Below the pieces are notes generated by a model that was not told where the DNA came from, did not search any database, and was given only the letters and a program-made list of their open reading frames with translations. This document shows, piece by piece, positions 19,484-41,214 of a stretch of 64,000 bases of DNA (its first letter is position 1; each line of letters starts with the position of its first letter). The stretch spans positions 128,001 through 192,000 of the forward strand of contig JAGSHN010000005.1 in assembly GCA_029855935.1 (NCBI GenBank). The letters run 5' to 3'. A program made the position numbers and the translations under genes. This DNA is from Candidatus Thorarchaeota archaeon. GTDB taxonomy: Archaea > Asgardarchaeota > Thorarchaeia > Thorarchaeales > Thorarchaeaceae.

Positions 19484-20204
19484 GTGGAAACCTCTGTATT
19501 TGCGGATAGTAGATATGCTTGGTCTCGATGTCGAAGCGGACAGGCGTGCCACTGCCATGTTGGATCGCCTGCTCGCTAGCCGTGACGTAGATGATCTCGT
19601 GCAGAAACTCAGACGGACAATATATGATACGGAGGTCATAGTGTGTGGAGCTGCCCCCTCACTTGACGCCCATCTCAGGATGATCAAGGAACAGCATTTC
19701 GCGGACGGGCGGGTGGTCATTGCAGCAGATGGGGCACTGGAGGCGCTGATAGGTGAGGAAGTCCATTGTGATATAGTCGTCACAGACCTTGATGGTGATC
19801 GGGGAGGGCTGATTCCCTCTACAAGACAGGGCACCCTTGCGGTAGTCCATGCACACGGAGACAACATCCCGCTCATACGAAGCGTTGTGCCGAGAGCATC
19901 TAATATCATTGGTAGTACCCAGGTTGAGCCGACTGAACATGTACATCTTTGGGGCGGTTTCACCGATGGGGACAGAGCATGCTATCTAGCGGCCCACTAC
20001 AGCCCACGCAAGATAATCCTAGCAGGCATGGACTTTGGGAGCATAGTTGGGAGATGGTCCAAGCCCGCGTGTGAGTCAGCGTCCCCAGCGAGCAGACAAA
20101 AGCGTCTCAAGATGTCGATTGGGAGGTGGCTTCTCTCTACGATAGAGAAACGGTTTCACGTCCCTCTGACGTATGTTGACAATGAAACTGTGTTTCAGCG
20201 CTGA
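19470..20204 (+). CDS. mptE: 6-hydroxymethyl-7,8-dihydropterin pyrophosphokinase MptE (DUF115)
   Basis: AADGA, VTDLDG, VHAHGDN, GGFTDGDRA, GMDFG; overlaps folP stop. Confidence 0.88.
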   Translation: MDWAEWKPLYLRIVDMLGLDVEADRRATAMLDRLLASRDVDDLVQKLRRTIYDTEVIVCGAAPSLDAHLRMIKEQHFADGRVVIAADGALEALIGEEVHCDIVVTDLDGDRGGLIPSTRQGTLAVVHAHGDNIPLIRSVVPRASNIIGSTQVEPTEHVHLWGGFTDGDRACYLAAHYSPRKIILAGMDFGSIVGRWSKPACESASPASRQKRLKMSIGRWLLSTIEKRFHVPLTYVDNETVFQR

Positions 20205-20620
20205 GGTGGCAACTTGAGGCCGAAGAGATACGTCATTATGAGGTACGCAGCACCAGCGAGGATAGCACCAAGTATTAGGAGACGAGTCGCGTAACCCGGC
20301 TGAAACACGTACTTCGAGGAGTAGTATATGAGGCCCAAGCCCAATGTCCCTATGAAAATAACCACCGACGCCACAAGGCCCTCCATTCCTAGCTGTACGT
20401 CAATTCCTCTCACAACAAGAATGGGCTCGCCATTGGGGCCACCAGCAATGGGCGGAGGAGTCTTCACCAGCGTGTAGATGTTTCCGCCGAGAACGAAGAG
20501 TATGGCAATGAACATGATTCCAAAGACCACTATGTCAGGAGGCCGTGTCGGCGTACTGAATCTCGGACGAGCTAGACGCATCCGAGGTCGAACTATGAAC
20601 TTGGGCCACCACATCTTCAC
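20195..20620 (-). CDS. OSTC/DC2-like (OST3/OST6 family) 3-TM membrane protein
   Basis: GGNIYTLVKTPP, QLGMEGLVAS and terminal KLP resemble human DC2 as recalled. Confidence 0.75.
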   Translation of the reverse strand: MKMWWPKFIVRPRMRLARPRFSTPTRPPDIVVFGIMFIAILFVLGGNIYTLVKTPPPIAGGPNGEPILVVRGIDVQLGMEGLVASVVIFIGTLGLGLIYYSSKYVFQPGYATRLLILGAILAGAAYLIMTYLFGLKLPPQR

Positions 20621-35754: not shown

Positions 35755-35919
35755 CTTGGAATGCCACGGGCCAAACAACAATATGAAGACTTCTGTCGAG
35801 CCAATGTCGATAGGCATTCTCGTTACCGAACAAAATCCTTAAATGAATGCCAGAGTGCGCAATAATGCTCCTTCTTGCAGGGCCCTCTGAACTTGTGGAA
35901 AATAGATAAGGTGAAGGAA

Positions 35920-36174
35920 TTGGGAAGACGACGACGACAAAAGGTCATTAGACGACCTCAGAAGAAGATCCCAGATGTGTATCCGTGCCCAGAGTGTGGT
36001 AACACAGCAATCAAGATTGAGCTGTACAAGGATAACAAGGTGGCACTCGTCAAGTGTGGCTCCTGTGGACTTGAAACGCTGATTGACGAGGTGACCCCTC
36101 TGACTGAAGCAGTCGATGTGTATGGAACATTCATCGACAGGTACTATGAGGAGAGGCGACTCACGACCACATAG
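35920..36174 (+). CDS. elf1: Transcription elongation factor Elf1
   Basis: GRRRR, CPECG, CGSCG, EAVDVYGTFID; TTG start. Confidence 0.9.
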   Translation: MGRRRRQKVIRRPQKKIPDVYPCPECGNTAIKIELYKDNKVALVKCGSCGLETLIDEVTPLTEAVDVYGTFIDRYYEERRLTTT

Positions 36175-36256
36175 GCACAGGGCGCACAGATAGAGTAGCC
36201 CAACGAAGTTAGCAACCGTTATAAGAGGACAGCAATCTCGCAGGAAACGATCTCCA

Positions 36257-36373
36257 ATGCAGGCTGAAGTCACAACACAAATCTTGAGCATTATTCTGAC
36301 GGCTCTAGGTATCATTGCCCTGCTACTGATTCTAGGATACTCCATCTACGGCGAGGAGGAGGCACAGGAGTAA
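36257..36373 (+). CDS. 38-aa single-TM microprotein, OST4-like (not in ORF track)
   Basis: MQAEVTTQILSIILTALGIIALLLILGYSIYGEEEAQE; TTATAA at 36219-36224. Confidence 0.6.
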   Translation: MQAEVTTQILSIILTALGIIALLLILGYSIYGEEEAQE

Positions 36374-36406: not shown

Positions 36407-36652
36407 TTGTGGTCGGAGATCGCAAGTGTGGTCAATAGATCATTCGAGCAGGCGGCCGCGCATCTGGCGAACTTGGGACCAGTGAGAAACATTATCGATG
36501 ACCTACTCAAAGAGAGTCGGTCCATAGAGGGGTTTCTCGCTCGGCTGGAGGAATACGAGCGCACAGGCCAGGATGTAACAATCAGAACAGACATCCGCAT
36601 CCTCATCAATGAGATAAGACACATAATGGCGCAGCGGAAGGCAACAAGATGA
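36407..36652 (+). CDS. Hypothetical helical protein coupled to lhr
   Basis: 81-aa ORF with ATGA overlap into lhr. Confidence 0.6.
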   Translation: MWSEIASVVNRSFEQAAAHLANLGPVRNIIDDLLKESRSIEGFLARLEEYERTGQDVTIRTDIRILINEIRHIMAQRKATR

Positions 36653-39498: not shown

Positions 39499-40114
39499 CA
39501 CGCGAGAACTAGTCGTCTTCGTAGGAAGAAGTAATGTCGGGAAGAGCAGTATCATCAGAGCCCTCACGGGGAAGCGGGTCCGTGTCGGAAAGCATCCCGG
39601 CAGCACTCGCAAGTTCCTAGCTCTCGATATGGGGCCAGTCATCTTCATAGACATGCCCGGATTTGGGTATATGGCCAAGCAGAGCAGGACCAAGATTGAG
39701 GAAACTAAGACAGCCATAGTCAGGTCTCTTGAGAAGCTTCAGGAGAGAATCGTATTGGGAGTTCTCATACTGGATGTTTCCCTATTCAGAGAAATAGTAG
39801 AGAGATGGGAGCGGCGTGGAGAGATTCCAATAGATGTGGAGTTCTATGCGTTCCTCCACGAGGTGGCAAGACAGGTCATAGTTGTGGCCAACAAGATCGA
39901 TAAGGTGCGTAGACGCGATAGAGGGGACGTATTGAGTTACGTCGCTCAGCGTCTGACCGAGGCGATGCCAACAAAACAACTCAATCTTGTCGTGACATCT
40001 GCGTCTAAGAAACACGGCATCTCAGAGCTGAGAGAGGCCATAGAGGCATGTCTTGATAGCGAGGGTGTTGGCATCCCGCGCTGGCCAGGGATTGAAGTTG
40101 ATCAGAGCGACTAG
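39467..40114 (+). CDS. engB: GTP-binding protein EngB/YsxC
   Basis: GRSNVGKSS, DMPGFG, NKID. Confidence 0.9.
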   Translation: MHEPISTGPDDTRELVVFVGRSNVGKSSIIRALTGKRVRVGKHPGSTRKFLALDMGPVIFIDMPGFGYMAKQSRTKIEETKTAIVRSLEKLQERIVLGVLILDVSLFREIVERWERRGEIPIDVEFYAFLHEVARQVIVVANKIDKVRRRDRGDVLSYVAQRLTEAMPTKQLNLVVTSASKKHGISELREAIEACLDSEGVGIPRWPGIEVDQSD

Positions 40115-41214
40115 CGTCGTTTCCTCACAGAATAGTATATGACTCCGAGCATAAGAACGACCGACGATACTGTGAGCATAGGAGTGATCGCAGTCGGCGA
40201 TTCGATGTGCTGCTCTGAGAGCCAGTTGAGGATGTTCATGAATAGGCGTGCATTGTCAGCAGTGTAGAACCACTTCATCTCCGAACGGGCGTCGGACTCT
40301 GGAAGGTCAAGTGGTCGACCGGTGAACATTATGGTAGACCCCGATATGACAATACGACTACGACCATACTCGAATGCGGCAAGCCAAGGCGGGAAAGTAC
40401 CGTTGATTGCCGAGTACGAATAGGGGCGCTCCTCAAACTCGGCCAGACTCATATTCGGAAACGAGATGTTAGCAAAAGAATACGGGCCCTTCCTGTACTG
40501 AGCAAAAGATGTGTCATAACCACGTGCAATCGCGCAGGAAACGTCAATGGGCTTGAGCGTAGCGGTCATCACGACCAGCTCATTGATGTCATTGAATATT
40601 GGATGAGAGGTGTTCCAAGTGGTACTGTCCAACCGAATGACCTGAGGGCGCGTTTCATTGAGCGCATGCTCATAATCGAACATAGAGTCAGACCAGTATC
40701 TATCCTCCGTGGCATTGATGCTGAACCGCACACCAGACATGTTGAGAGCATCGAGAAGCCTGTTGACCGCGATATTGTCTCCTAGGTCCTGAAACGGCTG
40801 TTCAGACCAGTATGTCGAGTTCTGATCGATTGCTGGATCTCCCATAATGAGCATGTCGCTCCCATTTTTGAGAAAGTCTGAGATGGCTCTAATCTCGGAG
40901 GGCTCGAATTCGCCGCTTCGGTCAGGATCCGCGATTATCAGAAGGTCGACATCGTTGAGGAGCGACTCATTGAGTGGGGAACCCTCGTGCACCTTGACGA
41001 GGTATCGCGTGGAGGCGTTCACCATATCGAGCATCAGCTTCAGACCGTTCTCTTCGTCGTCGGGAGCAAACTGTTGGAGATGGCTCGCGTCGTACAGGAC
41101 CACAATCGGATCCAACGTGGATTGGGCCCGAACGCCTAACGGGATGGACGACGCCATTGTCAGGGCAATAATGGCAATGGCAAGGAACTTTGACGATCTA
41201 CTGAGCCTCGACAT
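40111..41214 (-). CDS. Secreted, C-terminally anchored GIFT-domain (GldG/IFT52/WBP1-like) protein
   Basis: Signal peptide; VLYDASH, DLLIIADP, RIVISGS..MF, DNARLFMNILNWL; TM plus RKRR tail; many NxS/T sequons. Confidence 0.65.
   Translation of the reverse strand: MSRLSRSSKFLAIAIIALTMASSIPLGVRAQSTLDPIVVLYDASHLQQFAPDDEENGLKLMLDMVNASTRYLVKVHEGSPLNESLLNDVDLLIIADPDRSGEFEPSEIRAISDFLKNGSDMLIMGDPAIDQNSTYWSEQPFQDLGDNIAVNRLLDALNMSGVRFSINATEDRYWSDSMFDYEHALNETRPQVIRLDSTTWNTSHPIFNDINELVVMTATLKPIDVSCAIARGYDTSFAQYRKGPYSFANISFPNMSLAEFEERPYSYSAINGTFPPWLAAFEYGRSRIVISGSTIMFTGRPLDLPESDARSEMKWFYTADNARLFMNILNWLSEQHIESPTAITPMLTVSSVVLMLGVIYYSVRKRR

Follow-up and report, generated by a model that had tools for sequence, protein, structure and literature searches.

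The stretch of 64,000 nucleotides analysed here (the window) holds, between the genes for the transcription elongation factor Elf1 and for an Lhr-type helicase, an open reading frame (ORF) of 38 codons that runs from an ATG at 36257 to a TAA at 36371–36373 (Table 1). The encoded microprotein has a short acidic N-terminal tail, a helix of about 20 residues with Gly18 and an invariant Tyr28, and an acidic C-terminal tail, GEEEAQE; it contains no Lys or Arg in its entire sequence. The ORF and a single transmembrane (TM) helix had both been proposed in an original prediction, and both hold: there is one hydrophobic stretch (19-residue Kyte-Doolittle maximum of 2.89), and the AlphaFold2 (AF2) model is a single continuous helix covering residues 2–37 (pLDDT 88.7).

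Table 1. Genes and signals of the window discussed in the text
Feature	Position	Strand	Basis
AglB/STT3 catalytic oligosaccharyltransferase, 934 aa	13443–16247	-	Pfam STT3, E 3e-50; 20 kb from microprotein gene
Ost3/Ost6-family membrane protein, 141 aa, TM part only (DC2/OSTC-like)	20195–20620	-	Pfam OST3_OST6; 16 kb from microprotein gene
Elf1 zinc-ribbon transcription elongation factor, upstream neighbour	35875–36174	+	Pfam Zn_ribbon_Elf1, E 2e-17
Archaeal promoter, BRE-like AGCAACCG then TTATAAG	36211–36225	+	Sequence and conservation in 50 loci
38-aa single-pass membrane microprotein gene	36257–36373	+	ORF, conservation, dN/dS, AF2, alignment A5
81-aa four-helix-bundle protein (PF2048.1-like), next cistron	36407–36652	+	AF2, PDB match, synteny
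Lhr-type helicase, 949 aa	36649–39498	+	Pfam DEAD, Helicase_C, WH_Lhr, DEAD_assoc

The microprotein gene has its own conserved BRE/TATA promoter. The TTATAA box occupies 36219–36224, with 32 nt between it and the ATG (the original prediction gave about 33), and it is kept in all 50 distinct Thorarchaeota loci, at −36 in 48 of them, at −37 in one, and at −38 in the window. The upstream consensus of the Thorarchaeota loci is TCAG.AA...TTATAAG.

The order elf1, microprotein gene, 81-aa gene, lhr is kept throughout the Thorarchaeota family, and the 81-aa gene and lhr overlap, stop with start. To our knowledge, the arrangement of such a microprotein gene with the 81-aa gene and/or lhr has not been described before. 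The spacer between the microprotein gene and the 81-aa gene measures 20–35 nt and contains a T5 run in only 1/50 loci and a TATA-like box in none of the 50; the 81-aa gene is probably co-transcribed with the microprotein gene. A GGGA(N4-6)TCCC hairpin, with a few compensatory changes, ends 1–2 nt before the start of the 81-aa gene in most Thorarchaeota loci (alignment A6; e.g., L007:1612-1659), and suggests translational coupling between the two genes; the fold of the window's own spacer is no better than those of shuffled sequences (z 0.61). The 81-aa protein is modelled as a confident four-helix bundle (pLDDT 93.4), whose best match in the PDB is 6E4J, the uncharacterised protein PF2048.1 of P. 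furiosus (TM 0.79/0.88, rmsd 1.0). The motif T-[LF]-[RKQ]-T-D-[IL]-R-I-L is nearly invariant in this protein.

Conservation and selection in Thorarchaeota

The ORF is present in 75 of the 76 genomes sampled from the Thorarchaeota family (23/24 in an earlier, smaller sample), and the copy of the window matches the family profile with E 1.4e-18. All copies begin with Met-Gln and have 33–40 residues, and in every one the C-terminal part reads Y-x-[VI]-[YW]-G and then continues with a series of Glu/Asp residues. Pairwise dN/dS, calculated for 50 distinct sequences, has a median of 0.23 and is below 1 in all 329 usable pairs, and the entropy at codon positions 1, 2, and 3 is 0.91, 0.54, and 1.60 bits, hence highest at the third position. 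Conservation in relatives and dN/dS were checks that the original prediction had itself put forward, and both speak for a real gene. The microprotein ORF is a genuine protein-coding gene under purifying selection. That it is a chance ORF of the elf1–lhr spacer and no gene could be suspected from its shortness, under the usual ORF cut-offs, and from the absence of its exact sequence from the protein collection, but the conservation (start and stop kept in these 75 genomes, the promoter kept as well, and orthologues called in public assemblies), the dN/dS values, and the codon-position pattern refute this reading and leave it next to no probability.

Orthologues of the microprotein do occur in public protein collections and assemblies, so gene callers sometimes call the gene, and the expectation that standard gene calling would miss it was too strong. 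A search for homologous proteins using the microprotein extended by four upstream in-frame codons gave no candidate. The only sequencing runs found to contain the stretch come from a hydrothermal vent metagenome, its probable source, with no RNA run listed.

The family in other Asgard archaea

Short ORFs of the same build are present in at least 12 Asgard families besides Thorarchaeota. In our numbering of Asgard families, where f1 is the Thorarchaeota family of the window, ORFs with a LILAY-type helix end and an acidic tail are found in f2, f3, f6, f8, f9, f12, f13, f15, f16, f19, f21, f22, and f27. The initial matches to other Asgard families were weak profile matches, and these resolved as short ORFs of the common build: an acidic N-tail free of Lys and Arg, one helix whose last residues are [LI][LIV][LA]-Y, and a C-tail that is again acidic. 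With a broadened profile the family was found in 75/76 genomes of f1, 19/21 of f22, 5/6 of f19, 4/5 of f16, 3/4 of f15, 3/3 of f13, and 2/3 of f21, and more weakly in f9 (23/68), while the orthologues of f27 (8/11) and f12 were reached by synteny. Where the family profile matched within large ORFs, it had picked up TM segments of multi-pass proteins and no fusion. When 1.84 billion representative proteins were searched exhaustively with the profile, only 23 came back, all of the same build.

Across Asgard families the orthologues have 31–47 aa (alignment A5), and in this pan-Asgard alignment only Met1 and the Tyr at the helix end (Y28) are invariant. The microprotein of the window, which is the first row of alignments A1, A2, A3, and A5, agrees with this pan-Asgard pattern in length, tails, helix, Tyr, and synteny. 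The window ORF thus belongs to a family of single-pass microproteins spread over many Asgard lineages. The f27 orthologue has 34 aa, starts with MID, carries Y25-H26-x-V28, and lies upstream of lhr (f27 and f12 loci L246–L256).

The gene order extends beyond Thorarchaeota. The microprotein gene is found upstream of lhr in f1, f8, f15, f16, and f27, and upstream of an 81-aa-type gene in f2, f13, and f19, with no lhr within the DNA stretches examined; in f1 and f15 the 81-aa gene precedes lhr. Because these ORFs of other families stand directly upstream of lhr or of a homologue of the 81-aa gene, they are positional orthologues. In f12, f21, f22, and part of f13 the microprotein gene is found in contexts lacking both the 81-aa gene and lhr. 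One of these is the order NurA, HerA, microprotein, ribosomal protein S3Ae of f22 (locus L150:349-3994).

Positively charged residues are unevenly distributed around the helix: over 36 diverse members, Lys and Arg number 1 in the N-flanks versus 18 in the C-flanks. The orthologues of f9 (L133–L137) are longer, about 50 aa, and have an extra N-terminal hydrophobic segment (a signal peptide or a first TM helix). This segment follows Met-Lys, which would place the conserved helix N-out/C-in. From these sequence features we infer a topology with the N-tail outside and the acidic C-tail in the cytoplasm, which would be the orientation of eukaryotic OST4.

Comparison with OST4

The original prediction likened the microprotein to OST4, a subunit of the eukaryotic oligosaccharyltransferase. 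The two are alike in build. Eukaryotic OST4 (PF10215; PDB 1RKL, 2LAT, 6EZN, 6C26, 6S7O) has 34–38 aa, about 36, and one TM helix, and the window protein has 38 aa and one helix. As in OST4, the N-tail of the microprotein is short, acidic, and free of Lys and Arg, the putative orientation is N-out/C-in, and a Gly stands ten positions before the invariant Tyr at what would be the cytoplasmic end of the helix, with His as the next residue in two Asgard families. There are also differences. Unlike OST4, the microprotein stays below the Pfam threshold and lacks the D4/Q6 motif, it has in the window a Ser and not a His after the Tyr, and its C-tail is strongly acidic, whereas the tails of OST4 are basic or polar. 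Its gene lies in an lhr operon, and an association with STT3 is putative here.

The human OST4 sequence given in the original prediction is identical to PDB 2LAT, and the ungapped alignment of the two cores that it proposed does give 7/19 identities. This count is not beyond chance, as 84 of 934 ordinary TM windows drawn from the same genome reach at least 7/19, a share of 9%; the prediction itself carried the caveat that short hydrophobic peptides match by chance.

Comparison of profiles gives somewhat more. The eukaryotic OST4 alignment and HMM comprise 44 sequences from metagenome contigs plus the PDB-verified human and yeast proteins. Aligned by hhalign with these 44 sequences, the pan-Asgard alignment A5 reaches a Prob of 60%, with microprotein residues 10–34 on OST4 residues 7–31, and a score of 21.5 versus 13.4 ± 3.0 for column permutations (p 0.023); the narrower alignment A3 reaches 42% (column-permutation p 0.033). 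Both runs fall in the register of the original prediction. With the OST4 HMM, the test against column-permuted A3 gives p 0.052 for the mean and p 0.017 for the maximum. Pfam Ost4 is the top match of two divergent members, one of f16 (E 0.0073) and P0023 (E 0.012), and in both the Gly falls on G15 and the Tyr on Y25, in the same register again (G15 ... Y25-H26 is the numbering of human and yeast OST4). The Gly ten residues before the Tyr is found in f1, f15, f16, and f19 and is absent in f22, f21, and f27. Tyr-His, the most conserved motif of OST4, occurs at the helix end in f12 and f27, the only families with His in this place, and the Y25-H26-x-V28 of f27 stands at the exact OST4 positions.

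Other tests remained at or near background level. Pfam Ost4 has zero match to the microprotein of the window, and the best family members score 15.9–16.6 bits against it, under its gathering score of 25 bits. A six-frame scan with the same model found nothing above the cut-off in any of 301 Asgard genomes, the top matches being read-through ends of large ORFs or AT-rich random frames. Searches of Pfam, NCBIfam, and PDB, whether started from the single protein or from three family alignments, yielded only TM matches at noise level; none of the OST4 chains in the PDB was recovered by the family profiles at E ≤ 10, and OST4 was not among the matches of the family profile in the 1.84 billion proteins. 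With the family HMM, human OST4 obtains 3.5 bits, the 87th percentile of the 934 ordinary TM windows (block-shuffle p 0.29), and yeast Ost4 6.3 bits, the 97th percentile (block-shuffle p 0.07). Conversely, with the eukaryotic OST4 HMM the microprotein ORF ranks 97th among the 63,281 small ORFs of its own genome, and a second, unrelated conserved Thorarchaeota microprotein scores 9.1 bits versus 4.2 for the ORF under study. Other TM-only Pfam families match family members equally well. The second microprotein (L257:1567-1668) is encoded on the contig of the window, about 24 kb upstream of where the window begins, and occurs in 7/18 sampled family genomes; it has 33 aa, a basic N-terminus, a helix end ...LYG-[IV]-S, and a tail ending in ALG-[SG].

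To put these values in scale, human and yeast OST4 match each other only at E 0.067. The OST4 signal would fit a true but very remote relationship, and also chance combined with post-hoc choice, and we regard it as borderline. Common descent of the microprotein and OST4 is plausible, the sequence evidence for it being borderline. Of the original reading, the unannotated microprotein gene is real, whereas the homology with OST4 is plausible, no sequence test for it reaching a conventional threshold.

Partners and possible function

Like the hosts of OST4, the genome of the window encodes STT3 and an Ost3/6-type subunit, the candidate partners of the microprotein. The 141-aa protein scores 34.9 bits with Pfam OST3_OST6 (cut-off 27), over model positions 183–288. 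Ost3/6 is found in 281 of the 301 sampled Asgard genomes, some of them from families in which no microprotein turned up. Because it is nearly universal, its co-occurrence with the microprotein is uninformative, and the presence of STT3 and Ost3/6 in the host is weak evidence. Neither gene is co-transcribed with the microprotein gene, whose neighbours are the 81-aa gene and lhr, or NurA-HerA in f22, and never OST genes. The STT3 and Ost3/6 genes are 4 kb apart, with glycine-cleavage and folate genes between them, and in many Thorarchaeota genomes the Ost3/6 gene is on the same contig as the microprotein gene, about 16 kb away. A 367-aa protein encoded at 40111–41214 (-) matches Pfam ABC_transp_aux (PF09822, 46 bits; GldG-type domain); the OST48 family is absent among its matches at E ≤ 0.01.

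Yeast Ost4 sits between TMH1 and TMH13 of Stt3, and the incorporation of Ost3/6 depends on it (PMC7226087). An OST4-like action is tentatively our best single mechanistic guess for the microprotein, one drawn from likeness in sequence and build. As in OST4, its helix would lie packed on the AglB/STT3 membrane domain, with the invariant Tyr at the cytoplasmic boundary of the membrane, and the microprotein would stabilise STT3 and help to hold the Ost3/6-type (DC2-like) subunit.

Almost as probable as an OST4-like action is that the microprotein serves another membrane protein, such as a transporter, an ATPase, or a part of the translocon, as a small subunit with an accessory or regulatory role, and is unrelated to OST4; its likeness to OST4 would then be the generic look of single-pass proteins of 35–40 aa. 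All tests for OST4 being at or near noise speaks for such a partner. So do the language-model neighbours of the microprotein, among which there are only clusters without a name and families of small bacterial proteins (YldA, MgtS-like), with scores ≤ 0.85, and its weak matches to Na+/H+ antiporter subunit C, SecF, and sarcolamban-type helices; a look-alike search of the ESM Atlas gave nothing at ≥ 0.9. In size, single helix, and weak Pfam and atlas matches the microprotein resembles regulatory single-pass microproteins of bacteria and eukaryotes (sarcolipin/sarcolamban, MgtS, YldA, and AcrZ-type), and by analogy with them it may be expected to act by packing of its helix with a larger membrane protein. 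There is no significant similarity to any of these families, which are not found in Asgards, and none of them has the Y-x-x-[YW]-G pattern with a poly-Glu tail. Against a partner unrelated to OST4 stand the profile-profile similarity to OST4, which in a consistent register beats 97–98% of the column permutations, the Tyr-His variants at OST4 positions, and a gene context that suggests no alternative partner.

The gene context bears on an unlikely third explanation, in which the microprotein is a membrane anchor whose acidic cytoplasmic tail binds the 81-aa protein and, through it, Lhr, and would so hold a DNA-repair helicase module at the membrane. Even deeply diverged Asgard families retain the microprotein gene ahead of the 81-aa gene, lhr, or both; the short spacer has neither a terminator-like T run nor a promoter, the hairpin seen before the 81-aa start in most family genomes fits translational coupling, and in f22 a further repair helicase module, NurA-HerA, precedes the gene. 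Yet the contexts of f12, f21, f22, and part of f13 include neither the 81-aa gene nor lhr, and, conversely, orthologous lhr genes without an upstream TM ORF are found in f7, f26, and f12. In genome G032 of f9, a family that has the microprotein, no lhr orthologue was found with the query used, and the spacer hairpin is not significant in the window. We know of no membrane role for Lhr, which we count against this explanation. Its most explicit form is rather improbable: a module of three genes (the microprotein anchor, the PF2048.1-like protein, and Lhr), the first two coupled in translation, that would keep a DNA/RNA helicase at the membrane of Asgard cells, the microprotein not being an OST subunit.

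Finally, the ORF might be a translated leader, its translation or membrane insertion controlling the 81-aa gene and lhr in the manner of MifM and similar regulatory peptides that insert into the membrane. It is the first cistron and ends very close to the next start, the hairpin covers the next ribosome-binding region in most family genomes, and the acidic C-terminal run comes directly before the stop, all of which could fit such a control. Purifying selection acts, however, on the whole peptide, helix included, and the peptide is kept in lineages without these downstream genes, which makes a leader very improbable.

The original prediction knew of no described archaeal OST4. Such a claim had already been made: Eme et al. 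(2023, Nature 618:992; PMC10307638) state that homologues of Ost4 and Ost5 are present in most Asgard classes, and the supplementary discussion of the same paper names only OST5 and WBP1 as new. The microprotein family resembles the Asgard Ost4 of these authors in being widespread in Asgards, a comparison by description only, as the text available carries no sequences or accessions.

The microprotein gene is conserved in many Asgard lineages and is often missed by annotation. Should the family prove to be the archaeal OST4, subcomplex II of the eukaryotic oligosaccharyltransferase (STT3-OST4-OST3) would in its entirety predate eukaryotes. This would support the published, and in the text of that paper barely documented, claim of Eme et al. 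(PMC10307638), and the Asgard counterpart of OST4 would become a defined gene family open to testing.
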